From: a virus
Lineage: Duplodnaviria; Caudoviricetes
DNA: 33,577 bases
Reading direction: 5' to 3' (one strand)
IMG/VR virus record: IMGVR_UViG_3300030330_005348
Coordinates: 1 to 33,577 of that record
The first letter of the stretch is position 1. Each line of letters starts with the position of its first letter. The position numbers and the translations under genes are program-made. The notes under the pieces are model-generated. The model was not told the origin of the DNA, made no database searches, and was given only the letters and a program-made list of their open reading frames with translations. This document shows positions 12,499 to 33,397 of this stretch, in pieces.

Positions 12499-15486
12499 TT
12501 AGTCCTCAAAACCAGCGCCAGAGTTCGTGATTACAAAATCAATTGCGAAGAACTCAACAGCCTTAGTTGGTTTCAAGAAGATCTTAGCATAGATTGTGTT
12601 TCTATCAACAAGATCTGGTGTTGTTGTTGTGTCATCAAGAATAACCTTGAAGGCGTCTATACCAAATTGGTTTTGAATATTAGCCAAGAATGGGTTGACT
12701 TGCGATGTAAAGTTGTTCCAAGTTGCCTGAACGTTTGGTTCAAACAATAGCGATGAAGCAATTCTAGAAATTTCTTTCTTCACAAAGATCATCAATCTTC
12801 TTACGTTAATTCTATCCAATGCAGATGGTGTGACTTGGAGAGTTTTTTGCCCGAAGATCACAATTCCTTCGTTGGGGAAGGTTGCGATTGGATTGATGTT
12901 TACATCGTAAAGATCATCTCTGTTCTTGGATGTCAACTTGTTTCTAACCATTGTCACTGGAATACCTGCTGCTCCCTCGGACAAACCTCCTCGATTAAAC
13001 CCTGCTGGTGCGAACCAAAGGGCGGATTGTCTCTCAGAGAAGGACAAGGCTCCGAAGGCTGCGACCGAAGGTGGTGCCCAAACGCCTCTACCAGAGATCG
13101 TGTCAGTAATTCTAACCCATGGATAGTATGTCGCTCCGTAGCTGGAATTTAAGTTACGTGTTGTCATGTTGTTCACAACATCTGCGACATGAGTTACGCT
13201 GATTCTATCTTTTTCTGTTTTATAGTTTTCTGATGCCGGAGTATATCCACCTCGTGGGTCAATGATCGCCAAAGTATCTCCACGACCTTCAGCAATTTCA
13301 ACCATTGAGGTTGTAAGACCCTCATTCACTATACCCGGAGCAACCAAGATATTTCCTTCAATGAACTCTGGATCCGCGTACAAATTGATTGCTTTCTTAA
13401 CCGAATAGTACATGGAGTAATTTATATCCGTTGCGCCTTCAGGCAATGCTCTTGTTTGGTTGAGAGGTTCTTTTTCTGTGATATCGAAACCATTGAATCC
13501 TCCATAAAGAGGTGATGTGAACCTATCATATCCAGCATCAAGAATAGCCTTGTAAGATCCGGTCATCGCTGTAATAGATGCCCCTCTGGCTCTGGAGCCG
13601 GAAGCATAGTATACATCACTAGTTGGGGTTGCTCTCTCAACATCATCAAGGGAGAAGTACCAAGAAACCTGACTTGTATTGGCTACTGCTGCGAAGCCGT
13701 CTGCCCCGCCTGCTCCTTTCGGTAATGGATACAAGACATCATAGTTGCTTGCATCAAATACAACAGAACCCGAAGTTCTGGAAAAGCTTGCTCCGAAGTA
13801 AGCCTCTGTTGGATCCGACAAACCGTCCGCACTAGCACTAATTCTCAATGGAACTGCTGGGAATTTAACACTACCAGTAAACTGACATTCATTCGTAGTT
13901 GCGGCGCTTAATTGAACCACATCAAAAGCTGCGGAGCCAGTTGTTGCTCCGAAACAAGGAGCCGAAGAAGCGGAGCCTGCGTTTAGGAATGGAGCAACGT
14001 CGGTAATGTCCAGACTTGACGATATGTGAACTTGACTAGTTTGAAGTGTAAAGTCCTTAAGTTTAGTTGGTCCATACACACCAAACGGAAGAAGTTCTGG
14101 ATTAGTTTGTGCTGAATCAACAGCGGCAGCCATCTCAACGCGAACAATCTTTGATACATTTGGATGAGAGCCATATTCTACAAGTCTTAAGTTTGTTGTG
14201 TCCCACTCAACATACATGTCACCAATTTGCTTGGCGATGTAATTTGGAGAGTTTGGATCTAACGAAAGATTTGTATAACGCTCAACATACTTTTTAGCGC
14301 CGTCGCTGTCTCTAATATCTCTAATGGCGAGAGTAAAAGAACCATATGGCAAGTTTGTATTTCTAGAGTAACGAACATCCTCAATAGAAATTTTGAAATT
14401 TCTTTGCTCCTCTTCACCAGTTGAAAGAGTGTGAAGTTTAAACAACTTAGTGACTGTATCTAAGTTCTCTGGGTTGTATGGGGGATTAAGGGTTGCGTTT
14501 TCTGCTTCGTCAGCAGAACCAGAAGTGTTTCTCAAGTCCTGAGAGAAGAACCATCCAGTTTGGGCTGGTACTGTGGCGTATTTAAACTTTCCACCGTCAG
14601 CCATAGTGGAGCCATTACCAATCTTCAAGATGCAGCCATATGCTTCGCGACTTCCAGAAAGTACTTCTCTGACGTGTCTTTCGTATGTTTGTCCCAAAAA
14701 GAATTTGGAGGTATTATCGTTGGCAGTATCTACCAACGCACTATTGGTTTTGGTTGGGTTTGTGTTAAACACTTTTCTAATAAAGTTTTGTGAACCCTCG
14801 CTAAAGTTGAAAACCGTTTCCTTGAGGACGTTTCCTTCCGATGCGTTGGCGCGGTTACCCGCTGCATCATAAAATCTAAGTTTAAAGTTCTTGTTGGTGT
14901 CAAGAGCGCAAACCATCACTGAAGATCCGGTTACCTTGGCTCCGCCGCCAAAGCCCGATGCTGTAGATCTAATAGAGCCTGAGAGTGTTGGTGCTCCTTC
15001 ACTAGAATAAAATATAGCCGCCAAAGCTCCGTTGACCACTTCTCTTGCTCCACTACCGGAATCAAAAAGGAAAAGACCGTATGCCCCTCCTCCAGCTGCG
15101 GAGAGAGTGTTTGTGGGAAGCTCCCAACCTGCTGTAGCGGTGGAGTCAGTGGTGTCTGCCTGTGGGTGTTGATCACCAAGGACACGAATAAATGTTAAAG
15201 GAGAGTTGTTCTTAAGCCATGCCTGCGCTGCGTATGCAGCGAATGTAGGAGCGGTTGGAATACCCGATCTCCAAATATCGCTCGCTTCTTGTCCTGCGAC
15301 GGGATTTCCAAACAGAGTAATAAACTCTGAAAATGATTGAACTTTTACTGGTCTATACGCTGGTCCTCTTCTGGAACGTCCAATTACGACGGGACCAATT
15401 GCTTCTGATTCTCTCGGCAGTTGAGAGTTATCGATTTCCTCAATAAAAACTCCGGGGGATACAAACTTGTAATCTCTTGCTGACAT
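12499..15486 (-). CDS. tail sheath protein (T4 gp18-like) with large insertions, 995 aa
   Basis: N-terminal FVSPGVFIEEID; C-terminal WFAPAGFNRG, INPIATFPNEGIVIFGQKTLQ, SALDRINVRRL, LFEPN and IFLKPTKAVEFFAIDF; SD AAGGAG. Confidence 0.95.
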   Translation of the reverse strand: MSARDYKFVSPGVFIEEIDNSQLPRESEAIGPVVIGRSRRGPAYRPVKVQSFSEFITLFGNPVAGQEASDIWRSGIPTAPTFAAYAAQAWLKNNSPLTFIRVLGDQHPQADTTDSTATAGWELPTNTLSAAGGGAYGLFLFDSGSGAREVVNGALAAIFYSSEGAPTLSGSIRSTASGFGGGAKVTGSSVMVCALDTNKNFKLRFYDAAGNRANASEGNVLKETVFNFSEGSQNFIRKVFNTNPTKTNSALVDTANDNTSKFFLGQTYERHVREVLSGSREAYGCILKIGNGSTMADGGKFKYATVPAQTGWFFSQDLRNTSGSADEAENATLNPPYNPENLDTVTKLFKLHTLSTGEEEQRNFKISIEDVRYSRNTNLPYGSFTLAIRDIRDSDGAKKYVERYTNLSLDPNSPNYIAKQIGDMYVEWDTTNLRLVEYGSHPNVSKIVRVEMAAAVDSAQTNPELLPFGVYGPTKLKDFTLQTSQVHISSSLDITDVAPFLNAGSASSAPCFGATTGSAAFDVVQLSAATTNECQFTGSVKFPAVPLRISASADGLSDPTEAYFGASFSRTSGSVVFDASNYDVLYPLPKGAGGADGFAAVANTSQVSWYFSLDDVERATPTSDVYYASGSRARGASITAMTGSYKAILDAGYDRFTSPLYGGFNGFDITEKEPLNQTRALPEGATDINYSMYYSVKKAINLYADPEFIEGNILVAPGIVNEGLTTSMVEIAEGRGDTLAIIDPRGGYTPASENYKTEKDRISVTHVADVVNNMTTRNLNSSYGATYYPWVRITDTISGRGVWAPPSVAAFGALSFSERQSALWFAPAGFNRGGLSEGAAGIPVTMVRNKLTSKNRDDLYDVNINPIATFPNEGIVIFGQKTLQVTPSALDRINVRRLMIFVKKEISRIASSLLFEPNVQATWNNFTSQVNPFLANIQNQFGIDAFKVILDDTTTTPDLVDRNTIYAKIFLKPTKAVEFFAIDFVITNSGAGFED

Positions 15487-15540
15487 TATCGATTTCTCCT
15501 TTAAATCGTCTTATGAAATACGACGGTATTATTTCTTTAA

Positions 15541-15548
15541 TAAATAGT
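15541..15548 (-). promoter_or_regulatory. putative late promoter motif ACTATTTA
   Basis: Intergenic, 54 nt upstream of the sheath ATG, followed by a small leader hairpin (15525-15507). Confidence 0.6.
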
Positions 15549-15572
15549 GCTTGGTTTTATGAAAGTCCAAAA

Positions 15573-16487
15573 TTATTCTCTATACTTGCCATCCACTCCA
15601 AAGTTTTTCTTATCATCTTCTGGTGGTCCGCCTGTAACTATTTGATCGTCCCACACTGTGTGCTCTCGACCGATTCTTACCTGCACTGCGTTTTCTCTAA
15701 TTGAAAACTTTGGCGTTTTTTGATTGTCGCCTTCGCCGACCAAATATGCCAACACCTCTATTTGAACTGTTGTTTCGTATTTTCTTTCCTCGTTTTCCAT
15801 AGAGTCTAAGTTGTTTTGACTTGTAAAGTTGGAAGAGACAAAAGCCTCATAGCGATGACCATCTCGGTGAACCACAAAACTGTTTATGAAACCCGGTCTC
15901 GTGATGAATGGCTGTAGCAAATCATTCATTTGTTGTTGATATTCTGTTCTTATTTTTATGTCATAGTTTACTGAAACATGGACGAGGGCGGGAATAGATA
16001 TTGTTTCATAGACAACTTTTTCCGTAGCTTTTCTGACAAAATTAGGAGCCGCTGTGTCGTTGTATCTGCGTTTAGCATCCGCATTAGCAAAGTTAGATGT
16101 TTTATCCTGCTTTATCCTTCTAGAAATAACCACTGATCCGCCTTTTTCAGGTTGAGTGGATATTGGAAACATGCCACCATAGTAGGCTCCCTTCCTTGTC
16201 GGGCTCTTGTCTACATTCTTTCTCTCTATTGTTATTGCCGGGAGGATAATCAACCCTTCATTGTCCCTATATTCTTTGCTGTTTTTAATTTGAAAAGCTC
16301 TCTCGGCAGAAGCCCAAATAACAGGGACTTTTTTTCTGCCTTCATTTGTTAGCGTCTTAAGGTCTAGGGCATCATTTATGTAATCATAAATGGAATAGTC
16401 CACAGTCTCAAGCGTAGAGGGGGCAAAATTAAGATCTTGATCTAGCTTTACCTTATCGTCTTCTGGAATTCCTGTATAGTTTGACAT
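15573..16487 (-). CDS. tail completion / sheath stabiliser (T4 gp15-like), 304 aa
   Basis: KVPVIWASAERA, ILPAITIER, VSVNYDIKIRTEYQQQMNDLLQ and ERKYETTVQIEVLAYL. Lies between the neck genes and the sheath. Confidence 0.65.
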   Translation of the reverse strand: MSNYTGIPEDDKVKLDQDLNFAPSTLETVDYSIYDYINDALDLKTLTNEGRKKVPVIWASAERAFQIKNSKEYRDNEGLIILPAITIERKNVDKSPTRKGAYYGGMFPISTQPEKGGSVVISRRIKQDKTSNFANADAKRRYNDTAAPNFVRKATEKVVYETISIPALVHVSVNYDIKIRTEYQQQMNDLLQPFITRPGFINSFVVHRDGHRYEAFVSSNFTSQNNLDSMENEERKYETTVQIEVLAYLVGEGDNQKTPKFSIRENAVQVRIGREHTVWDDQIVTGGPPEDDKKNFGVDGKYRE

Positions 16488-16497
16488 AATTTAAGCC

Positions 16498-16986
16498 CTA
16501 GTATCCGTTAAAGTTTCCCTTTCTTGCTCTTTTACATGTTGCTGCAATTTCATATTTGTAATCAACCTGACCGAATAACTCTCTTGGTTCATTTAAAGTT
16601 ACAATTTCGTAATGAAATTTTCCATACAAAACGAAATCGCCCTCCCTAACAAAGAGGTTTTGATCTTCCGTAAGCCTTCTCTTGTGAAAATAAATATTAA
16701 TTGAAGATCTCTTGTCAACACCGAAAGAAGTATTTGTAGTCTGCTGACCTTCCCATCCAATTAGAGCGTATACTCTAACGGGTGGTAAGAAAGTCTTCTC
16801 TAGTGCTTCACCATATAGCTCATGAAAGTTAGTTTTATCAAGACTTATTGGATAATAAAGAACAGTTTGCCCTATTACTCTCTCAATGACTTCATCATTG
16901 ATTTGCTTAACTAAATTACGCTCTTTCTCCCCAGTAAACAAGGGAGGTGGAGGACTATCTGGTTGTGACCATTTGTTATCTGCCAT
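16498..16986 (-). CDS. neck / head-completion protein (T4 gp14-like), 162 aa
   Basis: GQTVLYYPI...HELYGEA...VREGDFVLYG...YEIV pattern, and synteny after the gp13-like gene. Confidence 0.65.
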   Translation of the reverse strand: MADNKWSQPDSPPPPLFTGEKERNLVKQINDEVIERVIGQTVLYYPISLDKTNFHELYGEALEKTFLPPVRVYALIGWEGQQTTNTSFGVDKRSSINIYFHKRRLTEDQNLFVREGDFVLYGKFHYEIVTLNEPRELFGQVDYKYEIAATCKRARKGNFNGY

Positions 16987-16992
16987 TTACAT

Positions 16993-18294
16993 TTATCCTA
17001 CATATAAAGAGGGTGGTACATTCTTTAACACATTTTGTGCCGAGTCACTTATATTGCTATCTTTTTCAGCTAGCTTCTCATATGTAAGCTCATCAAGGAC
17101 TGTCTTCAGTTCTTCTCTCAAAGCATTCTGATCCTCTTTTGCTTCGCTTACTAACGATGGACCGTTAAGGGTTACACTCTCGTTTGGTATTGGAATAGTG
17201 GCAAATTTGCTCCTGATTAAACCCAGCATTTCTTTAGATAATGCTAAAGCAAACCTTCTAATCCATTGCTTGCCAATTGAATTAATTTTATCATATGGTA
17301 TATTTTCAAATGGCAGAGTATTCATATTGTTGATACCAGCAGCACCGTCTTCTTTTCCAGCCTCTTCCGACCACGGATCAGACTCCACTGTGAACTCTAT
17401 CCACATTTTCTTTGGACTGTGGTCAACTGGGCTTGGGAATAATCTCAAATTGTTGTTTTTGATCTCATACGAAAAGTGAGAAGCCCTTGTGTATATTGAA
17501 TCCTCAAATGCCATTGCCTGAGCTTTATTTTGCCAAGCAGGAATAAGTTCAAATGTTGAGTCGTCGGAGTATTGTCCGTAGTAAGACAGATTGCCGACTG
17601 TGTTTAATCCCCCATAGTATCCGTAAAATCTCCACATAGCATTTGGAGTTTTATAGTACACTTTCCTAATGGTAATTCTCTTGTCCCCATTTGATCCCAA
17701 CTTCTGGTAGAAAGGGCTTCCAGAGTCGGTTGTGGATGTTGTGCTTACTATATCTTGTAGATCGTAATCTTGTTTGTTCACCAAAGTATCAAATGACGCG
17801 GAATATATGGTGGTGGTCCCACCGAGACCTGCTTTTGTCGATACAACATCACCAACCCTATCTGCATATTGAAAGTCGTATTTTGGATACTTCAAAGCAA
17901 CATCGGAGCCACTTAAAGAGTGTGCCGCATGAAGCTCGCCGTCATTATCAAAGGAGCCTGTGGAAGCGCCCAAGACACTCCCTAAAACATTTTTGGCTTG
18001 GTGGACATTTACAAGATATGAATATTCAAGACACGCTTCTTCATAAGCAGCGTAAACTTGGTATTCAGTAATCTCAACATCAACAACGTCTCCTCCGAGT
18101 TTCTTATATACATAAGCAACTTGATCCACTGCTCCGGTCACAAAGTGTTGCTTTGCTTTTAGTGACGAAGCATGGTCAATATAGACTCCATATGGAAGAG
18201 GGTTGTCCGAAGAATTTACGTTATCCGCATTCCCAGTAACAGGAAGTCTAGAAACACTAGTTGTACTTGATGGTGTTAAAGTTGGGTAAGCCAT
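16993..18294 (-). CDS. neck protein (T4 gp13-like), 433 aa
   Basis: KLGGDVVDVEIT at the N-terminus and QWIRRFALALSKEMLGLIRSKF...VTLNGPSLVSEAKEDQ...L at the C-terminus. Follows the major capsid gene. Confidence 0.75.
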   Translation of the reverse strand: MAYPTLTPSSTTSVSRLPVTGNADNVNSSDNPLPYGVYIDHASSLKAKQHFVTGAVDQVAYVYKKLGGDVVDVEITEYQVYAAYEEACLEYSYLVNVHQAKNVLGSVLGASTGSFDNDGELHAAHSLSGSDVALKYPKYDFQYADRVGDVVSTKAGLGGTTTIYSASFDTLVNKQDYDLQDIVSTTSTTDSGSPFYQKLGSNGDKRITIRKVYYKTPNAMWRFYGYYGGLNTVGNLSYYGQYSDDSTFELIPAWQNKAQAMAFEDSIYTRASHFSYEIKNNNLRLFPSPVDHSPKKMWIEFTVESDPWSEEAGKEDGAAGINNMNTLPFENIPYDKINSIGKQWIRRFALALSKEMLGLIRSKFATIPIPNESVTLNGPSLVSEAKEDQNALREELKTVLDELTYEKLAEKDSNISDSAQNVLKNVPPSLYVG

Positions 18295-18327
18295 TCATTC
18301 TATCTCCTTGGTACAATCGTATCATAG

Positions 18328-18335
18328 TAATTAGT
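18328..18335 (-). promoter_or_regulatory. putative late promoter motif variant ACTAATTA
   Basis: Lies between the capsid terminator and the neck gene, 33 nt upstream of the ATG at 18294. Confidence 0.55.
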
Positions 18336-18361
18336 TGTGGAGTAAACTTAAAGCATAATAG

Positions 18362-18397
18362 AAAGAAAAAAGCCCCGCCAAATTAATGACGAGGCTC
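18362..18397 (-). terminator. intrinsic terminator after the major capsid gene
   Basis: AGCCUCGUCA-UUAAUU-UGGCGGGGCU forms a 10-bp stem (two G-U pairs) followed by UUUUUCUUU. Confidence 0.85.
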
Positions 18398-18422
18398 TTT
18401 GTTTGTCTAAATCCTATCAGAA

Positions 18423-20171
18423 TTATCCGTTAAGATCGCGACAGATAACAAGACCGTACATATCAGGTCTAACCATCTTCTTAGCATAACGGGTCATGAC
18501 ACCCTTACGAGGTACAAAGTCCTCTACACCGAAGATAGTTGGAGTTACCTGAAGTGGGACGTATGGAGCGTAAACATATCCGCTCTCAAGGAACGATCCA
18601 CCTTTACGTCCGACAAGAATAACGTTTCTTGGGAAGTAAGGATCAACGTATACGTCAAACTTCTTGCTCAACGATCCAACATTAACTGCTCCAACAGTTC
18701 CGTTTCCGTAGTCGTTTCCGATGGAAGCGCGGAATCCAGCAGTGAACTCAAGGATGTTCGCAACTTCTGGTGAACAAACAACGAAGTTTGCGCCGCCGCG
18801 AAGTGTCTTTCTGTGGATTTGAGCCGATACATCGTTGATGGTTTCTGCAAGAGTCTCGTACCATTCGGAAACAGTACCAGTAAAGTCAGCACCCATCAAG
18901 GATTCGTTGTCCAAGTTTCCACCAACCTGTACACCGTTGTCACGCTTGAGGAATCTACCCGGACGACGCGACCAGTATTGAGTTCCAGCGGAAGCACCTT
19001 TGATAAGGTCTTCGAGGATCTCGCGGTCAATCTCAAGAGCAATCTGCTCAGAAAGGATACTTGTAAGCTCAACTTCTGCGTCAAGGTTGTGGTAAGCATT
19101 GAGATCTTGTCCCAATTCTGGAGTCCACTTAGCCTTGAGCTTCTTGGTTTGAGCAGTAACCGCAATGGAATCAACTTTGATGTCGATCTCTGGGATTCTT
19201 GGCTCGTTCTCAAGACCCCAAGTAGGATCACCGACAACAGCACCAACAGCGCCGCCTGCGATAAAGTCATCATCAATTGGGTAATTGAGTCTCAACGCTG
19301 CGTTGATTCCCTTAAGGTCATCAAGCAAGTTGTCGTTTTTGTTGTTTGCGGAAGGCTTGAACACCAACTTAACCAAAAGGTTAGTATTTGTTGGGTCGTA
19401 CTTATCACCTGTAGATCCAGAGTGAATCGCAGTAAGTCTTCTCACCAAAGTACCACCACCTGCTCCAGTAGAACCAGTGAGGTTGAAAGCAACAAGATTT
19501 TTCAAGTCAGCCTGAACCAAGTCAGCCGAACCAGAGAAAGCAGTAACAACAACAGCAGATCCAGAAAGATCTGGGTCAAAGTTAATTGCCTTATCAAGAT
19601 CAAAGTCGCCAGCAGAAGCAGTTCCGTGAATAATGAAAGCGTCAGAAGCAGCAGCTAACAAACACTCTCCAGAGGAACCAGTTGGGCTAGCATATCCGTT
19701 GTTCAAGGCATAAGGTCCTTGCTCTGGATTGCTAAGGTCAACACCGCCTGTCAACTGTTGACCAACAACCTGACCACCGTAAAGTGATTCTTCAGTGCTT
19801 CCATATCCGAGACGTGGAAGTCCTGCTCCATCTGTGGAGGTTGTGAAGTCCAAGAAGAAAATGAGTCCGGATGGGAGGCTCATTGGTTGAACGCTTACAA
19901 GATCATTAGCGATCAAATTACCGAATACACGGCGAACGATTGGGAATGCAACTGCTGCAAAACCCTCAACATCTGCTCCAGCCATGGAGGATGCCTCACG
20001 GAGAAGTTCTTTTGCTTGGTTTTCAAGCAAACGAGCCATTCCGTCTTTTGATTGGTCACTGTCAAGTCCCTCAAGAAGTCCGGTCTTTTCCCACTTGTTG
20101 AGTAGGGCTGCACCTTCTTTCTGGAGGTCGCGATTAACAATGCCTTCTGTTAATTTATCTAAAACTGACAT
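18423..20171 (-). CDS. major capsid protein (T4 gp23-like), 582 aa
   Basis: LLENQ, FPIVRRVF, VSVQPMSLPSGLIF, KKLKAKWTPELGQDLNAYHNLDAEVELTSILSEQIALEIDREI, YAPYVPL and GVMTRYA; SD AAGGAG. Confidence 0.96.
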   Translation of the reverse strand: MSVLDKLTEGIVNRDLQKEGAALLNKWEKTGLLEGLDSDQSKDGMARLLENQAKELLREASSMAGADVEGFAAVAFPIVRRVFGNLIANDLVSVQPMSLPSGLIFFLDFTTSTDGAGLPRLGYGSTEESLYGGQVVGQQLTGGVDLSNPEQGPYALNNGYASPTGSSGECLLAAASDAFIIHGTASAGDFDLDKAINFDPDLSGSAVVVTAFSGSADLVQADLKNLVAFNLTGSTGAGGGTLVRRLTAIHSGSTGDKYDPTNTNLLVKLVFKPSANNKNDNLLDDLKGINAALRLNYPIDDDFIAGGAVGAVVGDPTWGLENEPRIPEIDIKVDSIAVTAQTKKLKAKWTPELGQDLNAYHNLDAEVELTSILSEQIALEIDREILEDLIKGASAGTQYWSRRPGRFLKRDNGVQVGGNLDNESLMGADFTGTVSEWYETLAETINDVSAQIHRKTLRGGANFVVCSPEVANILEFTAGFRASIGNDYGNGTVGAVNVGSLSKKFDVYVDPYFPRNVILVGRKGGSFLESGYVYAPYVPLQVTPTIFGVEDFVPRKGVMTRYAKKMVRPDMYGLVICRDLNG

Positions 20172-20192
20172 AGTTTTATTTCTCCTTTAAAG

Positions 20193-21224: not shown

Positions 21225-21272
21225 TATATAATCTCCTAATATTTGGTCGCAAATAGACGTTTTGCGTCGTAG

Positions 21273-21280
21273 TAAATAGT
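21273..21280 (-). promoter_or_regulatory. putative late promoter motif ACTATTTA
   Basis: 48 nt upstream of the scaffold ATG, followed by a CGCAAA/TTTGCG hairpin (21266-21248). Confidence 0.6.
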
Positions 21281-21319
21281 TGTAAAAAAAGCAAAAATAC
21301 AAAAAAATAACAACTTAGT

Positions 21320-21574: not shown

Positions 21575-21577
21575 AAT

Positions 21578-24368: not shown

Positions 24369-24376
24369 TAAATAGT
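24369..24376 (-). promoter_or_regulatory. putative late promoter motif ACTATTTA with a structured leader
   Basis: 94 nt upstream of the fibre ATG, followed by two hairpins (24362-24347 and 24343-24328). Confidence 0.6.
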
Positions 24377-24458
24377 TTTGAAAGTGAGATTTATGACTTG
24401 ATAAAATTACTTATTCAAGTATTTTGTCATAATCACAGGAAAGGATTGATAAAAAATA

Positions 24459-24962
24459 TTAATGTTGACCATCACTATATCTAGAAACACTAATTCCAGA
24501 TCCAGTTAAAGCGTACATATCTTCGGCAGGAATATGAGTAAGTTCAGCATACACAGCAAATGATCCTGCGTTAACGCCACCGGCAGCGGGTCCCGAAACT
24601 AATCCACCAATAGGTGCTGCTGTAATGTACAGCTCTTTACACTTAATGTGTGCGTCAAAAGAGCCTGTTGTGGGATTGTTGCTGGTAATTGCTGCTGGTA
24701 TAACATAGTAATGTATACCGTTAATCGCCGCTGGGGCGGTCGCTTTTGGAACAAAATAAACTGCTAACTCACTAGCTGTGCAATTATTAATAACCTTAAC
24801 GTACTTAGTTACATTTGGAAACTCAACTTTGTATTCGTTTCTTGAAGCAAAAGCAGCAGACCCTTCTGCTTCAACAATTGAACCTGTTAAGTAAGGCTTT
24901 CCCGAAACTTGATATGCTGCTGAGTTTCCTAGCCCGCTTGCTCTTGGATTGTATAACGACAT
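24459..24962 (-). CDS. putative small virion (decoration-type) protein, 167 aa
   Basis: Beta-rich-looking, small-residue-rich protein with three TGS motifs; SD AGGAG; located in the head module. Confidence 0.6.
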   Translation of the reverse strand: MSLYNPRASGLGNSAAYQVSGKPYLTGSIVEAEGSAAFASRNEYKVEFPNVTKYVKVINNCTASELAVYFVPKATAPAAINGIHYYVIPAAITSNNPTTGSFDAHIKCKELYITAAPIGGLVSGPAAGGVNAGSFAVYAELTHIPAEDMYALTGSGISVSRYSDGQH

Positions 24963-24973
24963 TTTATTTTCTC

Positions 24974-25210
24974 CTAGTCTCTATATTTAGCATTGTATTC
25001 TCTTTGGAGCCTTTTTAAAACTCTGTTGCGCTCTTTTTTCTTTCTGCGGCGCTTGTCTGTTGGCTTCTCAAAGAACATGTGTTTTTCTCGCCACTCATCA
25101 AGGACACCTTCCTTTTTGACTTTTTTAATAAACCTCTTGATCATTCTCTCTGGAGATTCATTTTTTCTTGGTGTAACTTCTACGTTAACCGGCTTGGCTC
25201 TCTTTCTCAT
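24974..25210 (-). CDS. rpsU: phage-encoded 30S ribosomal protein bS21 homologue, 78 aa
   Basis: V.V...NES.E...KRF.KKV.K.G.L.E......FEKP..KRRRKK matches the bS21 family pattern; very basic. Confidence 0.85.
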   Translation of the reverse strand: MRKRAKPVNVEVTPRKNESPERMIKRFIKKVKKEGVLDEWREKHMFFEKPTDKRRRKKKERNRVLKRLQREYNAKYRD

Positions 25211-25217
25211 TGGTTTC

Positions 25218-25634: not shown

Positions 25635-25635
25635 T

Positions 25636-26232
25636 CTAGTCCTTTACAATATCATTTAAAAGTCTATTGATCTTGTCCGCCTTGGTCCACATGTTTGGTT
25701 CTTTATTTTCTTTCATCATAAAAGCGCCAGTTGTGGATGGCTCAGAAACCATGTCAAAGCAAATCAACTGAAAATCATCATTCACTCTTGCGGCTCCATT
25801 ATTCTCATCAACGGTTCCCAAACCACGGGAGGAGATGCCCACTTGACATCCTCCTTCAACAAGCGCTCGAAGTGTTTTTCCCGCTGGTGTCTCAAGTACT
25901 TTAATCTTGCCCATAACATCTTTGCCCTCAAACCACACCGCTGTAACAATGTGGGAGGCATTAGCAAGATTAACGATAGAAGATTCTGGATGGTCTAGTT
26001 CTCCTAGTGCTCTTTTTTCCTTGACAAGTTTCTTGTAGTTCTCCACTTCTCTCTCTAAAACTCGCATAGGATAAACTCTGCCATTTCCGTTTTGCGCTTC
26101 CGCCCTTTGCATCACGCCGGAAAGAATCAGTCCACCATTTGCGACATAGCGCTTTTCCTCTTCCGTTAGAAGATCTTGGCATGTTCCACCTTCGCATAGT
26201 TGATAAAATTCTGTTAATAACATTTTTGACAT
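25636..26232 (-). CDS. prohead core protease (T4 gp21-like), 198 aa
   Basis: NGNGRVYP, ALGELDHPE, ASH, GISSRGLG and FDMVSEPST motifs. Confidence 0.93.
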   Translation of the reverse strand: MSKMLLTEFYQLCEGGTCQDLLTEEEKRYVANGGLILSGVMQRAEAQNGNGRVYPMRVLEREVENYKKLVKEKRALGELDHPESSIVNLANASHIVTAVWFEGKDVMGKIKVLETPAGKTLRALVEGGCQVGISSRGLGTVDENNGAARVNDDFQLICFDMVSEPSTTGAFMMKENKEPNMWTKADKINRLLNDIVKD

Positions 26233-26267
26233 AATAATAATCCTTTGACGGGCGTTACCCGTGCGAG

Positions 26268-26321
26268 TTAGGAGCCTCTACAGCAACGTCTAACTGGTTG
26301 TAACATCCATTTCGCATTCAT
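26268..26321 (-). CDS. unannotated 17-aa peptide MNAKWMLQPVRRCCRGS
   Basis: ATG at 26321 has a near-perfect SD (AAGGAGGT) overlapping the upstream stop codon; TAA at 26270-26268. It fills an otherwise empty 100-nt gap. Confidence 0.65.
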   Translation of the reverse strand: MNAKWMLQPVRRCCRGS

Positions 26322-26332
26322 AAGAACCTCCT

Positions 26333-26647
26333 TTACTCGTGAATATTGTTAATCTTTATTCCGCTATCACTAATAACAACATTTAAAGCATATGATGTAG
26401 CCGAAGATAAACATCCTAAAATCAGCAAATTAGCGATATTATACTCAAAATTAAATAGTTCTGTTAAGCCATTTATTCCGAACAAAAATACCCCTACCCA
26501 AAAACCCGTACACATCGGGCAATGAATAAGTGCGCCAAACCAATCAGATTTTTCCAAAATCCAATGGCGTTGATTTTCAAATATACTACCGTAAACTAAG
26601 ATTTGGGTCATGCCCCAAGAGGCGAGAATAAAATATAAAAGTTCCAC
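26333..26647 (-). CDS. small membrane protein with CxxC (DUF1360-like), 104 aa
   Basis: About three hydrophobic segments and an LIHCPMCTGFWVG motif. Confidence 0.7.
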   Translation of the reverse strand: MELLYFILASWGMTQILVYGSIFENQRHWILEKSDWFGALIHCPMCTGFWVGVFLFGINGLTELFNFEYNIANLLILGCLSSATSYALNVVISDSGIKINNIHE

Positions 26648-27195
26648 TATTCGTACCTATACATCCCTGCTAAACCATAATAATAACCCGGATAACCCGG
26701 ACTTAATGTCCCTTTCTTTTCTTTTTGTGGAACCTCGCCGAGGTTAGTGCTGTCTTCTTTATCTGGGTGGAGTAACCTTTCGTCTTCCATGTCATCAATA
26801 TACTCGAATGAATCCATGTATGCTTGTTCGGACTCCATAAATCCAGCGATATTATAAAGAACTATTTCTGTAAGATTATCTACTTTTGCTTCCTTTGGGT
26901 ATGCTGCCTCAATTGAGCCAAACACATTTGAGCCCTTAACGCTTTCAGGCAAGACAACCCCCTTCTTGAATAGAAAATCAAAAAGCCTGTTTTGACTCTT
27001 GTAAACCAATTCTCCAAAATCTTTTTTTGAATAAGCGGTGATCTTGCCAGCTTGCTCGTCCAAAACAATGTCCATGTCAATGTGATTAAAAACCATAATT
27101 TGCCCAGAAAGAGAGCGCCTCATATCAAGATTCCTGATCTCGTTCTCCATCACGTCTAATGGTAGCTGATTTTTAATTGTAATTTTAACAGTCAT
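26647..27195 (-). CDS. hypothetical protein, 182 aa
   Basis: Tightly coupled ORF between the portal and protease genes. Confidence 0.75.
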   Translation of the reverse strand: MTVKITIKNQLPLDVMENEIRNLDMRRSLSGQIMVFNHIDMDIVLDEQAGKITAYSKKDFGELVYKSQNRLFDFLFKKGVVLPESVKGSNVFGSIEAAYPKEAKVDNLTEIVLYNIAGFMESEQAYMDSFEYIDDMEDERLLHPDKEDSTNLGEVPQKEKKGTLSPGYPGYYYGLAGMYRYE

Positions 27196-27196
27196 T

Positions 27197-28027
27197 TTAG
27201 TTATTTATTTCCCTAGCCAATTCTTGGATCTTTAAGATCTTTTTTAAATCACCATCCTCCAAAGGCTTTTGGCTAAAAGCCTCTAGAAGCTCCAACACTT
27301 GATCTGCTTTGTGCGACATCTCCTTGTCTTCAATGAACTCTCTAGTCTCTTTCGCTGTGGAAACCTCTTCTTTGAGTCTCCCAATTTCTGTATTTAGATA
27401 GATCTGAAATTCTAGGTCGTTACCAACACCAGAAGCAATAAATCTAGATAATAAAGTTTTTTGCTCCTCAAGGAGACCGGAATATTCATTGTTAAATCTT
27501 TCCACAAAAGACTTGAATACAAGATTATCAATGTGCTTAAGCTCCTTGTTCTCAGATTCTCGTATACCCTCAGTCATAAGTTGCAGAGCCTCTTCCTCAA
27601 GAAGAACTCGCTCCTTAGCAGAAAGGTTGAGGTTGTTGAAAACTTGGTGAAGTGTAGCCAAGTTTTTATAGTTTGGGACAAATGTTGTGAATACGTCTTT
27701 AGAAAGCTCCTTGTTGATTCTAGAAATCATTTGACTTTGTTCCGAGAATATTTGCTTCTTGTCAAGAACAGAATATTCAATTTTAGATTCGGACAAGATT
27801 TTCTCCGCAATTGTTGATTTAGCCTGTGTTGTGTCTAGTATGTTTTTGTAAATCTGCACTTCTCTACCCATAACAGTTTCCTTATTAAAGTGCTCCCTAA
27901 CAAGGCTTAAGATAGTCTCTCTCCTGTCTTGGTCCTTCTCAACTGTGGCTTTTGTCAATTCTCTGACGAGCGCTTCGTAAAGGAAAATGGTGTTCCTTTT
28001 TTTGTTGTGCTTAATTTTCGCTGACAT
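27197..28027 (-). CDS. hypothetical protein, 276 aa
   Basis: Overlaps the end of the portal gene; starts KIKHNKKRNTIFLYEALVRE; helical composition. Confidence 0.75.
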   Translation of the reverse strand: MSAKIKHNKKRNTIFLYEALVRELTKATVEKDQDRRETILSLVREHFNKETVMGREVQIYKNILDTTQAKSTIAEKILSESKIEYSVLDKKQIFSEQSQMISRINKELSKDVFTTFVPNYKNLATLHQVFNNLNLSAKERVLLEEEALQLMTEGIRESENKELKHIDNLVFKSFVERFNNEYSGLLEEQKTLLSRFIASGVGNDLEFQIYLNTEIGRLKEEVSTAKETREFIEDKEMSHKADQVLELLEAFSQKPLEDGDLKKILKIQELAREINN

Positions 28028-29966
28028 CTTTCTTGGTCTCCAGTTCCGTAATCAATGCTTTTACTTCGTTGTTAATTTCAAAGATTTTTCTTTCTTCTTC
28101 TCTATAATTAGATTCTTGTTCTTCTTTAATCCCTCTTGCTAGGCGGGAAAGGTCTTGATAGCCCTTGTTTATGTTTCTACTAGTGCTACTAGCTAAATTA
28201 CTTCCCGCATCTGAAGACATCTGCCTTTGCATGGACCTTTTGCCAGAAAGATCTGTGCGGGGCTTATACCATTTTCCCTTGGATTTAGAAGTTGTGGTCA
28301 TCTTCTTACCAGCTACTTTTTTTTCAATCTTGTCATCTCTATTGGCTGGGGGTGTTGCTAAAAGATTTGTTTCTGGCTCCTCGGGCGGCTCCTCGGCTGC
28401 CAATTCTTCTGTGCCGCCTTCTTCAGCGCCGAGGTCATCCAGACCCTCGCCTCCGGGTTCGTCGCCCATGAGATCTTCCATTCCTCCGCCTCCTAGACCT
28501 CCGCCCATGTCTGCGGCTTCAGCTGATTGATCAAGCTGGGCGGTAATTATCCTATCGTGGAACATTTCTCGCTGGTTACGTAAGAACTCCTCCTCCGAGA
28601 TGGCAAAGAGGTTTTCTGCGATCCAGCGCTTGGAGAAGAAGCCTTCTGCTGCTGCAGAAGCAACGTCAAACTTGGTTCTCCACTGTTCCAAGTCTTGGAG
28701 TTCAGCAATCTTGGAGGGGTTATTCATCGAGAGCTTGAAAGAAATAAGATCGTTTTCTCTATATCCCAAAGTGAAAAGGTGGATAATGGCAATCTTTTCC
28801 AACTCTGTGATCACAACTCTTTGTAATCTTTGGATTGTTCTCGCAAAACGAATGTCTTTTTGGGCTAGAGTTGCCTTGTCTTCATCAGCACCTTCACCAC
28901 GAAAGAGATACGACTGTGGGATTTTAAGTGCCGAGAATAGTTTGTCCTTTAGGTATTTAACATCATCAATATCGCCCGTGTAGGTTCCTCCGGGCAAACT
29001 TTCAACCCTTGTTGATTGACCGCCACGAGTAGGAATAAAATAATCCTCATCAACTGACATTGGATTGTATCGAAGATCAACGCGACCTGTATCAGCGTCA
29101 ACAACTTGATTGCGCTTCATAGAGGTCATAACCTTCTGCATGTACTGTTCAACATCGTTAGGAGCCATGTTCCCAACGTCAACGTAAAAAACCCGGCGTT
29201 CTGGGGACCGGACGATGCGATAAGCCATCATAGCATCTTCAAGCAACGTAAGTTGTCTAAATATTCTCCTCGATGGATCCAGAACTGAAGTCCCATACGG
29301 GGCATGTTTATCGTTCCCAAGTACACGGAAGTGAGCAACCTGCCAATTCTCGAAAGTAAGACCCGCTGAATTCCATTGGTATTGAACGTAGTTTGGGTTC
29401 GTCTTGTCCTCTCCCTCTAAGCGCTCCACCTCTCTGAGTGGGAGACTAATAACGTTTTCTATGCCTGTTTTTTCGTCGATGTCCAAGTATAGAATGTAGT
29501 CTCCATATTTACACAAGGTTCTACACCAATTAAAAATGTTGTGTTCTATGTTGAGTACATTGTGAAAAAGTGAATTTAAAATAACCTTTATCTCTTCATT
29601 TTGACAATGGATGTTTAAAAGGGGCTTCATCGGAGAAGAGGTGGTCATTTCATCAGCATAGATGTCCAGCGCGGAGGCGATGATTGGCTCATACTCCATT
29701 TGATCGAAGTCAATATATCTTTGGAGTCTAGATTGGTTTTGGTAAACATTAGCCGATAAGTCGGAAAATGGATTGTACCCCATTCTCTTAAATTGTTTGC
29801 CCGATGCGGATTGGAATTGGGTGGCATATTTATCCAGATCTCTTCTTTTATTTTGATTTACATTTTGTGCTCGATAATTTACGATAGGACCAGAAAAAAG
29901 CCTAGTCAATCTTTTAAAGAGAGGAGATGCGGGATTTCTTACGTTCTTTCCGTTTTTGGGAGCCAT
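28011..29966 (-). CDS. portal protein (T4 gp20-like), 651 aa
   Basis: IASALDIYADE, LEDAMMAYRIVRSPERRVFYVDVGNM, EDYFIP, LPGG, DIDDVKYL, ALKIP and DIRFARTIQRLQ motifs. Confidence 0.95.
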   Translation of the reverse strand: MAPKNGKNVRNPASPLFKRLTRLFSGPIVNYRAQNVNQNKRRDLDKYATQFQSASGKQFKRMGYNPFSDLSANVYQNQSRLQRYIDFDQMEYEPIIASALDIYADEMTTSSPMKPLLNIHCQNEEIKVILNSLFHNVLNIEHNIFNWCRTLCKYGDYILYLDIDEKTGIENVISLPLREVERLEGEDKTNPNYVQYQWNSAGLTFENWQVAHFRVLGNDKHAPYGTSVLDPSRRIFRQLTLLEDAMMAYRIVRSPERRVFYVDVGNMAPNDVEQYMQKVMTSMKRNQVVDADTGRVDLRYNPMSVDEDYFIPTRGGQSTRVESLPGGTYTGDIDDVKYLKDKLFSALKIPQSYLFRGEGADEDKATLAQKDIRFARTIQRLQRVVITELEKIAIIHLFTLGYRENDLISFKLSMNNPSKIAELQDLEQWRTKFDVASAAAEGFFSKRWIAENLFAISEEEFLRNQREMFHDRIITAQLDQSAEAADMGGGLGGGGMEDLMGDEPGGEGLDDLGAEEGGTEELAAEEPPEEPETNLLATPPANRDDKIEKKVAGKKMTTTSKSKGKWYKPRTDLSGKRSMQRQMSSDAGSNLASSTSRNINKGYQDLSRLARGIKEEQESNYREEERKIFEINNEVKALITELETKKDVSEN

Positions 29967-29970
29967 TTTT

Positions 29971-31545
29971 TTATCCTTTAAGAATCCAATTGAATTGTTG
30001 TTGTTCTTTTATTCTATCACTTTTTCCGACTGGTTTATAGCCCTGTTGACCCGGAATTGTTGTATTTAGTTCACTTTTTGTTCTAGTCATCGTGCTAAGA
30101 AACGCTTTTGTATATTGCACATCTCTTTGGTTGGTTTCCAATGCGGTATCTCTAACCCAGCAACCAATAGCAAAAGCCATAACCAAGTCATCGTTATACA
30201 TACGCATAGCTTGGGGGCGACCGTTTTGCCAAACAAAAGTCTCTAGCTCATTAAATAGTCTAGTAGAATATATTGTAACTAGTTTATTTCTAATGAATTC
30301 TTCCATTTTTGCTACAATCAATGGTCTCGTCTTGGAGGTCGTAGAGAAGCCAGCGACAGCATTAGATTGTGTTTCTCCCAGATAAGAATCAATGTATTCG
30401 TGAGTGGACTTGACCGAGTAGTAAAGGTTTGGGTAAGCCATGTCCCTAAGTTTATCCAGAACAGCAAAGCCAACAGAATTGTTCTCAATTACCATTAAGC
30501 ACTCACCAAACTCTTTGCCCACTTCATTTAACATATTGGCGAACAAATCTGGTGTTATTTTTGATTTGTACTCTCCGACAATTTCCATCGTTGACAATTT
30601 CATGATGTGGAAAACAGAACTATCTTTATCATCACCACGAGCAACGTCGGCTACAAGAAGATAGCTTTCTCCCGGTTGATACTCTTCCCAAATCCAAAAG
30701 TTTCTATCAAAACCTGTTTTATACTTTGGGTCCTGAAGTCCTTTCTTTATTCTAGCCATATCCTCGGGGTGAATAACGGTTTCACCAGACATATTAAAAT
30801 TACATTCATACTCTTGAGCCACTTGTCGCTGGGACATGTTTTTCGTTTCTTCCTCGAACCATTCGTCATCTCGATCAGGATGGACATGCCATGGGAGAAT
30901 AGTTGGAAAGAAATCATTGATGCCTGCTTCTGCGTCAACATAGGTTTGATGAAACCAATTGCCCACACCATTTGGAGTGGATAGAGCGATACATCGACCC
31001 CCTGTTGACAGGGTAGGGTAAAGACCAGTCCAAAGTTCATCAAGCCCCTCAACATGTGCTGCCTCATCAATAACAAGAAGAGACAAAGCTTCTGAACGAC
31101 CTGCGTCACCAGAAGTTGTTGATGCCTTGATCTGAGAGCCATTATTTAATTCAAAGGAGGCTCTGTTGTCAATAGAAATTGTTGCTATCTGCATCCATTC
31201 TGGTAGGTTTTTGATGATTGCCTTAACTTTCTTGACCAGATTGGCTGCTGTCTGAAACTTGGTAGCCATGACGAGAATGTTTTTGTCTCGGTGAAAAAGC
31301 ATCATCCAAGACACATACGCAGCAGTGATGGTAGAAATGCCCAACTGTCGCCCTTTCAATATGACATTGAAGCGATGATCATTAAAATCTTTTAGGAGTT
31401 GGGTTTGAAAATCGTAGGTATTGAAAGGTACGGTGCCGTGGATTGGGTGGGAGATCCTAGCATAACTATTGATAAAAAAGTCAGGGTCTTTGCCACACTT
31501 GACTATTTCAGCGAGTATCTCTTTTTTAGAAAGTTTATAAGCCAT
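29971..31545 (-). CDS. terL: terminase large subunit (T4 gp17-like), 524 aa
   Basis: YDFQ (Q motif), LKGRQLGIST (Walker A), LLVIDEAA (Walker B), LSTPNG (coupling motif), QEYEC, nuclease ADVARG.D.D and NDDLVMA. Confidence 0.96.
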   Translation of the reverse strand: MAYKLSKKEILAEIVKCGKDPDFFINSYARISHPIHGTVPFNTYDFQTQLLKDFNDHRFNVILKGRQLGISTITAAYVSWMMLFHRDKNILVMATKFQTAANLVKKVKAIIKNLPEWMQIATISIDNRASFELNNGSQIKASTTSGDAGRSEALSLLVIDEAAHVEGLDELWTGLYPTLSTGGRCIALSTPNGVGNWFHQTYVDAEAGINDFFPTILPWHVHPDRDDEWFEEETKNMSQRQVAQEYECNFNMSGETVIHPEDMARIKKGLQDPKYKTGFDRNFWIWEEYQPGESYLLVADVARGDDKDSSVFHIMKLSTMEIVGEYKSKITPDLFANMLNEVGKEFGECLMVIENNSVGFAVLDKLRDMAYPNLYYSVKSTHEYIDSYLGETQSNAVAGFSTTSKTRPLIVAKMEEFIRNKLVTIYSTRLFNELETFVWQNGRPQAMRMYNDDLVMAFAIGCWVRDTALETNQRDVQYTKAFLSTMTRTKSELNTTIPGQQGYKPVGKSDRIKEQQQFNWILKG

Positions 31546-31563
31546 TTCTACAACGGTGGGTTA

Positions 31564-32058
31564 TTAATTCTTAGAAGTATCTATCCATCTTTTAATATTT
31601 TCATTGATGTCTTTTGGCTGGTCTTCTTCTAGTACACCCTCCGCTCCACCAATTTTATAGATACAGCTCGATTGATACCAAGTGCGAACATTTGACATCT
31701 TTTGAACAAGAATATCGGTATCTCCCTCTCTTGTTAATCGAAGGTTTTTACCAGAAGCTCCTCTGTATTCTTTTTGGATGAAAGAGATAATATCAGCAAT
31801 GTTCTGTTCAACCATATCTTGAAAGTTTGGCTTTTGAACTTGTTTGATATTACATTCGGAAGAATAACTAAGAATCATCTTGTCACCCTGAAATCTAACA
31901 CCGAAGCCGTCAACAAGCCTGCTGTCTGTTACAGCATTGTCAACTTCTCTTTTGAGCCCGATTTTTACTGGTTTTCCTTCTTCATCTAGTGCGCCGTCGT
32001 AACCCTTGGTGGATACGATGTTTTGAATTGTTTGTACAACATCTAAAATATTAGCCAT
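31564..32058 (-). CDS. hypothetical protein, 164 aa
   Basis: ORF directly upstream of terL, overlapping the previous gene. Confidence 0.75.
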   Translation of the reverse strand: MANILDVVQTIQNIVSTKGYDGALDEEGKPVKIGLKREVDNAVTDSRLVDGFGVRFQGDKMILSYSSECNIKQVQKPNFQDMVEQNIADIISFIQKEYRGASGKNLRLTREGDTDILVQKMSNVRTWYQSSCIYKIGGAEGVLEEDQPKDINENIKRWIDTSKN

Positions 32059-32467
32059 TATCTTTCCCCTTATAAAAGTTTCCTAAAAACTCTACTCTTT
32101 GGTCTATGTCTGCCCAGCGTTCTTCTCTGCCTTCAACAAAATACATATAGCAATTCCAACAGCAATCATACTTGTTCATATACATATCGTCTTTTAGAGA
32201 AAACGAGTATTCAAAGCAAGCAGGGCAAACACGGTCTTCGTCTTTAGTAAGTAGTTTTTTTGATACGAAAAAACCATCTTTATTAATCTTTTCAACATCT
32301 TCTCTTCGACTGAGTTCTTTTTTGTGTTGTATCTTGATTTGCTCTAGATAATTAAGTTCCTTTTCTTTCGTCCATCCTGACTTTGGATTTACGATTGTTT
32401 TGGGACCATACTTTTTGGAAATTGCTTGCTCTATTTTTGCTACCGTATTCAAATCGTGCTTCTTCAT
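32051..32467 (-). CDS. hypothetical protein with a putative zinc finger (CPAC...CCWNC), 138 aa
   Basis: CxxC and CCxxC motifs in the C-terminal half. Confidence 0.7.
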   Translation of the reverse strand: MKKHDLNTVAKIEQAISKKYGPKTIVNPKSGWTKEKELNYLEQIKIQHKKELSRREDVEKINKDGFFVSKKLLTKDEDRVCPACFEYSFSLKDDMYMNKYDCCWNCYMYFVEGREERWADIDQRVEFLGNFYKGKDNG

Positions 32468-32476
32468 TTAACACCA

Positions 32477-33397
32477 TTATACATCTAATTTATCTAGTTT
32501 TTCAGCCAAAAGATCTATTTTATTTTGCTGCTCTTTCACAGCCTCAACCAAAAACGAAATAATTCTAGTGTAATCCATTGTATTTGCGTATTGGGGATCA
32601 GCGCTCCATTCAACAATCTCAGGGATTACTTTACCAACCTCCTCCGCAATGAAACCAAAATCTTTTTTTCCTGTATCCTTCCAATTATATGAAACACCTT
32701 GAAGTTTGCTTATTGTCTTAACAGCAGACTCAAGAGGTTCAACATCTTTCTTATACCTTATAGAAGAATATGACACAAAAGCATTAGCCTTAACTTGCCC
32801 TGCTGGTCCGCTTGTGTCTGGCAATGTAACAGCATGAGTGGCGTTTCCTTCTCCAACTCCTACTCCAAGATACTTCTCTATATTGACAGCAGAACCAGAT
32901 ATTGTTACTCCGCCGTTAAATGCGGACCCTGATATGACTAGAGCATTGGTTGGGGACGTTTGAAAAAATATCTTTGCCTCGTTATTTGGTCCGAAATTGA
33001 AAGCTGATGCGTCCCCCTCTGATCCCACAAACTGAATTGCGCCGCCTATTTTAAGAGGAGAAGCTCCCTCTAGGGTTCCATCTATCTGAATTGTTGAGCC
33101 GGACAACACGATGCCCTGATCAGAACCCGAAATAACTAAAAAATCATCCAAATTCTCGTTATATTCTATGAAGGCATCTGAGTTTGTACCGAAAATCAAC
33201 TTTACATCGTCGGCAATCTTCAAGTCGGTTCCATCAAAAGTAAAGGTGGATATGTTACCAAAAGATCCGTTGTTGTTATACTGAATGTGCGTGTTAGATC
33301 CAGCAGGATTAGTTACTCCAGAAGAAGGAGTAGAGAGTGCCGCCTGCTGTTTTATCAAAGCCATCAATTTATTGTGGCTATACTTACCTATCGCCAT
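32477..33397 (-). CDS. short fibre/spike protein with a C-terminal S74-type chaperone, 306 aa (start reassigned to ATG 33397)
   Basis: AGSNTHIQYNNNGSF fibre motif. C-terminal SYSSIRYKKDV...YNWKD...FGFIAEEV...MDYTRI...LVEAVKEQ; SD GGAG precedes 33397. Confidence 0.8.
   Translation of the reverse strand: MAIGKYSHNKLMALIKQQAALSTPSSGVTNPAGSNTHIQYNNNGSFGNISTFTFDGTDLKIADDVKLIFGTNSDAFIEYNENLDDFLVISGSDQGIVLSGSTIQIDGTLEGASPLKIGGAIQFVGSEGDASAFNFGPNNEAKIFFQTSPTNALVISGSAFNGGVTISGSAVNIEKYLGVGVGEGNATHAVTLPDTSGPAGQVKANAFVSYSSIRYKKDVEPLESAVKTISKLQGVSYNWKDTGKKDFGFIAEEVGKVIPEIVEWSADPQYANTMDYTRIISFLVEAVKEQQNKIDLLAEKLDKLDV

Follow-up and report, generated by a model that had tools for sequence, protein, structure and literature searches.

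Why do a tail sheath, a major capsid protein, a neck protein and a tail fibre of one phage share the same three residues? The question is raised by the 33,577-nucleotide stretch IMGVR_UViG_3300030330_005348 (the window), a 33.6-kb fragment of a T4-like myophage, in which a first-pass annotation had picked out the tripeptide [S/T]-G-S in outer virion proteins as a possible recognition sequon for a virion-wide modification. Its motif counts were reproduced exactly, with 10 in the sheath, five in the capsid protein, three in the neck protein, three in a 167-amino-acid (aa) protein, four in a 315-aa fibre and two in an 880-aa fibre, and the highest motif lay at 33130, slightly inside the span end of 33165 that had been given. 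Comparison of sequences indicates that the motif is real, selected and restricted to a clade of phages. From statistics and gene content rather than chemistry, we consider that [S/T]-G-S is probably the acceptor sequon of a phage-encoded O-glycosylation of the virion.

The 27 motifs of the window compare with 8.5 expected from per-protein composition. Shuffling 1000 times, in blocks of 10, 20 and 40 residues and over the whole protein, never produced as many as 27 on any of these four scales, the highest count being 21. SGS was the top tripeptide of all 8000 in the window (17 vs. 4.7 expected), and SGS/TGS ranked first among 228,000 two-word patterns (p = 3.7e-7). After the look-elsewhere correction the window alone was borderline (Bonferroni about 0.08 over the 228,000 patterns), and the proof is therefore carried by replication in other genomes. 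As annotated, the motif was absent from the other 24 of the 30 window genes, including terminase, portal, putative tape measure and tube; the zeros in single inner proteins are uninformative, with 0.1–0.8 motifs expected in each, and the pooled count was 0 vs. 2.5. The 880-aa fibre, which had been placed in the motif set, was not enriched (2 vs. 1.5) and does not belong there.

The relatives were tested with the motif fixed beforehand as the hypothesis, and an excess of 2.2–3.1-fold ran through a large T4-like group to which the cultured phages immuto and RM378 belong. The excess was 2.2–2.7-fold in five whole genomes (observed/expected: G001, 84/38.7; G002, 109/43.4; Flavobacterium phage immuto, 117/47.5; Mel-JY01, 148/61.9; RM378, 52/19.4), and the ratio was 0.68–1.56 in 11 controls, 10 of which were part-genomes or small phages. 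Three further records (G008, G011 and G014) gave 2.1-, 3.3- and 3.6-fold, counted only in the roughly 20 kb that surround the capsid gene. Across 80 related loci, whose homologues are not independent and which include fragments, the ratio was 3.9 in capsid and sheath, 4.4 in the neck and 6.6 in the 167-aa family, and at most 0.5 in tube, portal, terminase, scaffold, tape measure and hub assembly protein. The inner proteins of the relatives held 3 motifs vs. 7.6 expected (tape measure), 1 vs. 6.3 (tube, 37 homologues), 0 vs. 4.6 (hub assembly protein), 1 vs. 4.9 (portal) and 0 vs. 3.3 (large terminase). The loci retrieved with the immuto and LR756508 capsids together carried 2310 motifs vs. 638 expected, and the LR756511 sister group showed no excess (108 vs. 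132 over 80 loci and 890 open reading frames (ORFs)), with no sheath or neck homologues detectable there. The claim that the motif marks outer virion proteins only held within the window; in whole genomes the other proteins carried it at background level (0.8–2.0-fold), so the motif is enriched outside and not forbidden elsewhere.

Within these proteins the motifs keep to particular segments. Among 37 aligned sheaths, 208 of the 209 motifs fell in residues 121–660, and the conserved ends held 0 vs. 5.8 and 1 vs. 8.0 expected. The conserved C-terminal third of the window's sheath is free of the motif, and this third matches T4 gp18 353–653 (profile positions 662–962) and the minimal sheaths of injection systems. 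In the T4 sheath, the inserted domains face outward. Secondary structure assigned with DSSP to a model of the window's sheath placed six sites in loops or helix ends, three in or at the end of strands and one in a low-confidence segment. In 77 aligned capsid proteins, 202 of 222 motifs lay in residues 115–326, between the parts that match T4 gp23 90–134 and 248–478, the region in which T4 gp23 has its surface insertion domain. The capsid model (pTM 0.38) put four of the five motif sites in loops or strand ends. The neck protein carries its motifs at residues 112, 128 and 191, with an additional SAS at 165, and the 315-aa fibre at 99, 108, 165 and 176, every one ahead of the chaperone domain (220–271). 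The 167-aa family had 71 motifs vs. 10.8 expected in 27 homologues; the nearest Atlas clusters of the window's member were all viral and without names, and it is probably a decoration-like virion protein, its location being presumed. The motif is enriched on inserted, predicted outer domains of the virion, with the outward orientation taken over from T4.

The residue requirements were narrow. In the S/T/G-rich proteins of six positive sets, [ST]GS occurred 415 times vs. 128.5 expected (3.2-fold) and [ST]AS was 1.9-fold, with N, D or A in the third position giving 1.0–1.1-fold; the 2.1-fold of [ST]GT probably comes largely from one Mel-JY01 repeat protein. The same protein class in nine control sets gave 193 vs. 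133.9 (1.4-fold). Over 2,613 unique contexts, I, V, F and L were favoured in the flanks and Pro was rare after the last Ser (0.16-fold), and in a strand both motif hydroxyls would face one side. At fixed sites, substitutions stayed mostly within [ST]-[GAS]-[ST], so both hydroxyls were mostly kept: neck residue 112 was T-[GAS]-[ST] in 66 of 66 aligned necks, and capsid residue 164 (58 of 77) and sheath residue 629 (33 of 37) were nearly fixed. Sites also turned over, with 68 motif columns in the 37 sheaths and 43 in the 77 capsid proteins, and pairs of proteins shared 28% and 37% of sites, a turnover that misaligned variable regions may have inflated. The poorly conserved segments of the sheath held 59 motifs vs. 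19.3 ± 4.3.

Candidate enzymes were found outside the window. Two adjacent family-4 glycosyltransferase (GT4) genes, GT-A and GT-B, are common to G001, G002 and immuto and stand ahead of sugar islands with nucleotide-sugar, nonulosonate, methyl-, sulfo-, formyl- and acetyltransferase genes; the island content differs per genome and the glycosyltransferase (GT) pair is constant. GT-B came next after GT-A in 72 of 76 orderable loci (from 80 GT-A loci); three of the others end at a contig edge and one differs. The E-x7-E signature was kept in 75 of 77 GT-A and 75 of 78 GT-B. The best PDB match of GT-A was chlorovirus B736L (NY-2A, PDB 3OY2; E = 5e-11), nearly full length over residues 7–392. The match to Gtf1 was weak and partial (E = 0.0034), and the nearest Atlas clusters of GT-B were viral. 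As for membrane proteins, a simple hydropathy scan of 87 island ORFs from five genomes returned two borderline hydrophobic windows only.

Some loci of these enzymes have an unusual form. In G059 (C1:66724-69105) the GT-B match falls in two parts of an 839-aa frame, which suggests that an intein or similar element was inserted in frame. The chromosome of a bacterial metagenome-assembled genome (L497 9878-12826) holds, flanked by N-runs, a gene closely related to GT-B together with two neighbouring genes, which may reflect an assembly error or the capture of phage DNA. In Mel-JY01 (W01 2-8430 and 83441-84932) a long S/G/T-repeat protein is encoded near a 1227-aa GT4-containing gene, and GT-A is in two ORFs.

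When motif and pair were compared across genomes, the check that the first-pass annotation had pointed to, GT-A and GT-B were both present in immuto, in Mel-JY01 and in all five motif-positive IMG/VR records with a completeness of 90% or more. Both were absent from G021 (98% complete), LR756511, XacN1, S-SM2, P-SSM2, HTVC008M and Aeh1; incomplete records are uninformative for presence of the pair. The GT profiles were built with proteins of immuto, Mel-JY01, RM378 and LR756508 included, and the scores of these phages are partly circular; single-query searches are free of this and matched GT-A in 12 and GT-B in 10 of 50,697 records. One record differs from the rest of the positive group. A quick capsid tree (SH-aLRT only, unfinished, long branches flagged) places LR756508 between the immuto phages and those related to the window. 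The GT-A of LR756508 heads a different sugar island (L110 19998-32466), and no GT-B was found in the whole record; over the 241 of 484 kb counted, motifs in its structural region were no commoner than expected (12 vs. 12.7), and its two sheath genes and neck were all motif-free. LR756508 is thus a probable joint loss of GT-B and motif.

The search with GT-B also led to a second virion lineage. In G041 (182 kb, rated complete), the pair lies beside the tail genes of the virion module; no Gp23 was found in this genome, and its virion genes gave no BLAST match to the first group. G041 had 116 motifs vs. 46.1 expected, and after removal of two large repeat proteins the virion region held 34 vs. 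11.0 ± 3.1 and the remaining genome 17 vs. 15.3; the putative tape measure had none. Its sheath family carried 334 motifs vs. 57.4 in 74 proteins. Among 10 G041-related records searched, two of which (G058 and G062) are apparently the same genome, six had both genes, including all three that are near-complete, and the four without were 24–41% complete. Eleven distant sheaths of this lineage showed no clear excess (18 vs. 15.7), and no GT was found in the sole searchable record of that group, itself incomplete.

Because pair and motif co-occur in two virion lineages and were probably lost together once, the glycosylation option of the first-pass annotation gains a named candidate. Its proposal that the motif is under selection on inserted, probably outer virion domains is also supported, by the order and residue specificity of the motif, its shifting positions and its restriction to a clade; docking of a decoration protein found no support. 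We propose that, in the infected cytoplasm, one enzyme of the pair would add the first sugar to one or both hydroxyls of a target of the form hydrophobic-[S/T]-[G>A]-[S>T]-hydrophobic, whose small central residue may let the enzyme in; GT-B would be the first-sugar enzyme that best fits the distribution. The partner GT and the variable island would extend and cap a lineage-specific glycan covering capsid, neck, sheath, baseplate and fibres. Since these subunits of capsid and sheath number in the hundreds and each bears several sites, the result may be a dense coat altering adsorption, aggregation, proteolysis or grazing. In a wider form, to which we give even chances, a portable two-gene GT module would define a general sequon that every acquiring lineage evolves over its whole outer surface and that decays when GT-B is lost.

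Several findings weigh against O-glycosylation of the motif by this pair. The window contains no modifying enzyme, as annotated, and no transferase gene was seen in its 33.6 kb; its own genome presumably holds the pair, a point left to inference because the record is a fragment. RM378 has a diverged GT-B candidate only (E = 3.5e-10), and its sheath and capsid carry a single motif apiece; the capsid protein of several positive genomes has just 0–1 motifs. P-SSM2 lacks the GT pair, yet its sheath (W07 112635-114824) had 5 [ST]GS where 1.3 were expected; this phage has another GT4 gene, and the sheath excess is possibly a separate system. Control phages had the 1.4-fold baseline in S/T/G-rich proteins, HTVC008M reached 1.9-fold, and the non-virion proteins of the five whole genomes were not depleted of the motif. 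When poorly conserved segments of the capsid, neck and 167-aa proteins were tested, the counts did not exceed all shuffles (for the capsid, 22 vs. 12.1, maximum 23). Hydrophobic residues were 1.3–2.6-fold enriched at both motif flanks, as in ordinary beta-strands, and, together with the conserved sites, this indicates that the fold contributes to the motif. The independent contrasts behind the co-occurrence number about three, and some replication genes are common to both virion lineages, so that the motif's true partner could be a different gene that they have in common. Finally, three siphoviruses (L105 6979-8172, L106 9787-10971 and L107 9916-11058) have a weak GT-A homologue directly behind the capsid or portal genes, inside the virion module, and a motif excess was not found in them. 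These siphoviruses are candidates for virion glycosylation at other sites.

The alternative that survives best, and is still unlikely, is that the motif is a recognition site for another modification (phosphate, sulfate, acyl, methyl or nonulosonate), for a host enzyme, or for binding of a decoration protein or chaperone. The methyl-, sulfo-, formyl-, acetyltransferase and nonulosonate genes of the islands would fit it, as would RM378 with its diverged GT-B, but these extra genes vary per genome where the GT pair is constant. The hosts on record are Flavobacterium, Rhodothermus and Microcystis (as labelled), to which a single host enzyme is hard to fit. The Bacteroidota sequon differs from [S/T]-G-S, and in the window D-[ST]-[AILVMT] was raised in the sheath (9 vs. 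3.6) and neck (4 vs. 1.7) only, with 1 vs. 2.1 in the capsid protein and none in the 167-aa protein and the short fibre.

Next, and likewise improbable, is an inherited structural origin, in which an unmodified beta-strand or turn signature (hydrophobic-S/T-G-S-hydrophobic) of beta-rich outer domains was amplified by descent and repeats, and the sugar island rides along. The hydrophobic flanks, the near-fixed capsid and sheath sites and the baseline of the controls agree with this, and repeat proteins do inflate the counts of Mel-JY01 and G041. Yet the G041 excess survived removal of the large repeat proteins, and the motif occurs in unrelated folds, in two virion lineages and at shifting positions. 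The excess is also missing in the sister group, in LR756508 and in the 11 distant sheaths of the second lineage. Asn and Asp are the usual turn residues, and neither was enriched in the third position, where Ser was.

A last alternative, very unlikely, is that GT-A, GT-B and their island modify the host envelope or DNA, and that the link to the motif is a coincidence of shared ancestry. In its favour, a PD-(D/E)XK nuclease gene adjoins GT-A in 68 of 76 loci, phage GTs are usually credited with modifying DNA or serotype in the accessible text of PMC12619734, and the small siphoviruses have weak GT-A homologues without the motif. Against it, the islands have no membrane proteins, the pair abuts tail genes in G041 and its weak homologue lies within the virion module of the three siphoviruses, LR756508 lacks both motif and GT-B, and a DNA target is disfavoured because liquid chromatography–mass spectrometry of immuto DNA gave dA, dC, dT and fdPreQ1, with no sugar-modified nucleoside reported in the main text available (10.1101/2023.04.13.536721), where figures or supplements may hold minor peaks.

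The proposed O-glycosylation system resembles the virion glycosylation of mycobacteriophages and chloroviruses and is a member of neither. Mycobacteriophage virion glycosylation was reportedly studied by Freeman et al. in 2023. In the accessible parts of three papers (PMC12363180, PMC12619734 and PMC10877033), phage GTs of Che8, Corndog and Myrna are proposed to glycosylate virion proteins as a shield, with the glycans on the C-termini of capsid and tail tube subunits. The near-complete relatives of the window likewise encode their own GTs, known here from the genes; unlike the C-terminal sites, those described here are internal, many per subunit and marked by a tripeptide, and they extend to sheath, neck, baseplate and fibres with the tube spared. 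No mycobacteriophage record among the 50,697 matched GT-A or GT-B at E ≤ 1e-5. The chloroviruses PBCV-1 and NY-2A glycosylate their capsids autonomously, using virus-encoded soluble GTs and non-canonical sequons (accessible text of PMC9614988). The phage GTs appear similarly soluble, and the nearest solved relative of GT-A is B736L, a GT-B-fold enzyme of unproven activity; unlike the N-linkage to Asn in these eukaryotic viruses, the phage motif has no Asn and implies O-linkage. N-x-[ST] was not in excess in the window's capsid protein (3 vs. 3.9).

Two bacterial systems offer further parallels. GtfA/GtfB is a tandem cytoplasmic GT4 pair, with GtfB non-catalytic, that acts on a serine-rich repeat protein whose glycans downstream GTs extend; the substrate consists of long repeats of a secreted adhesin, in which alternating Ser/Thr are separated by a small residue. 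The phage genes are likewise a tandem GT4 pair and the phage motif places Ser/Thr around a small residue, whereas the phage sites are dispersed in folded domains and E-x7-E is kept in both phage genes. The general O-glycosylation of Bacteroidota uses the sequon D-[S/T]-[A/I/L/V/M/T] in a periplasmic, lipid-carrier pathway. A three-residue O-sequon is common to both, and the closest cultured phage infects Flavobacterium; the motifs differ, virions assembled in the cytoplasm would not meet the periplasmic route, and the phage islands have no membrane steps. A literature search, outside of which most subscription journals lay, found no paper describing this motif or a phage-virion sequon; the literature covered also included PMC13738210, 10.64898/2026.10.24.761521 and 10.64898/2026.09.14.751636.

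The genes of the window run from a PolA-like gene through tail, neck and head genes to terminase, all on the minus strand (Table 1). The Gp23 capsid, Gp20 portal, contractile sheath and S77 protease are all present, as in T4-like myophages related to Immutovirus and RM378. The nearest of 50,697 phage genomes were LR756508, immuto, Mel-JY01 and RM378, with capsid identities of 43–52%; to cultured phages the capsid identity is only about 50%. A bS21 gene lies within the TerL-portal-protease-capsid block, as in the published bS21 phage clades a–e. Here it shares the (−) strand with the structural genes, and in those clades it lies on the opposite strand to them (PMC9723584); the accessible text of that paper has 'glycosyl' and 'motif' 0 times.

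Table 1. Position of motif-bearing, comparison and neighbouring features in the window.
Feature	Position	Strand	Evidence
Tail sheath, 995 aa	12499..15486	-	PHROG 23, PF04984/PF17482; 10 motifs vs. 1.3 expected; model pLDDT 77.5
Motif-bearing middle of the sheath	13555..15060	-	DSSP of model; motifs in residues 143-644
Neck / head-tail adaptor Ad2, 433 aa	16993..18294	-	PHROG 211; 3 motifs vs. 0.47 expected
Major capsid protein (Gp23 family), 582 aa	18423..20171	-	PF07068; 5 motifs vs. 0.53 expected
Motif cluster of the capsid insertion, residues 164-253	19413..19682	-	Between parts matching T4 gp23 90-134 and 248-478
Fibre with S74 chaperone, 880 aa	21632..24274	-	PF13884; 2 motifs vs. 1.5 expected
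167-aa protein, head gene region	24459..24962	-	3 motifs; no PHROG, Pfam or NCBIfam match
bS21 gene	24974-25210	-	PF01165; in head-gene block
Fibre with S74 chaperone, 315 aa (306 from first ATG)	32477..33424	-	PF13884 at 220-271; 4 motifs vs. 0.48 expected
Comparison genes: putative tape measure (890 aa), hub assembly protein, tail tube	7615..12436	-	0 motifs
Comparison genes: portal, large terminase	28011..31545	-	0 motifs

Other features were observed beside these. The family A polymerase-like gene at 932-2119 (−) is short, encoding 395 aa, and matched PF00476 in part only. It is followed by a 279-aa gene (105-944, −), which G001 and G002 also have and for which no Pfam, PHROG or NCBIfam match was found; its N-terminal glycine pattern may be tubulin/FtsZ-like. 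The 880-aa fibre is Asp/Ala/Gly-rich with a long internal duplication and has no counterpart in G001 and G002. In XacN1 (L175-L182), of which 160 kb were counted, TPT/PTP/VTP was very strongly over-represented (169 vs. 20), probably from Pro/Thr repeats. G045, a single record of 269 kb that may be chimeric, encodes the Gp23 capsid twice, at sites about 200 kb from each other.

If the proposed O-glycosylation is correct, the sugar islands of aquatic T4-like phages, usually filed as host-envelope- or DNA-modifying with no known target, would gain a substrate in the virion sequon. In its wider form, with a portable GT module, the system would be the first in bacteriophages to glycosylate the whole virion under the direction of a sequon, and the purpose of islands described as lipopolysaccharide (LPS)-like would be explained. 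An O-glycosyltransferase that is soluble and recognises a tag of three residues could also serve in glyco-engineering, and the cultured phage immuto_2-6A makes the question of the sequon testable. The first capsid scan alone gives an estimate of about 7,700 matching IMG/VR stretches. If the proposal holds, the particles of this very large aquatic phage group would be glycoproteinaceous, with consequences for adsorption, decay, grazing and virion proteomics; in the wider form, these very abundant aquatic myophages would carry a dense, lineage-variable glycocalyx.

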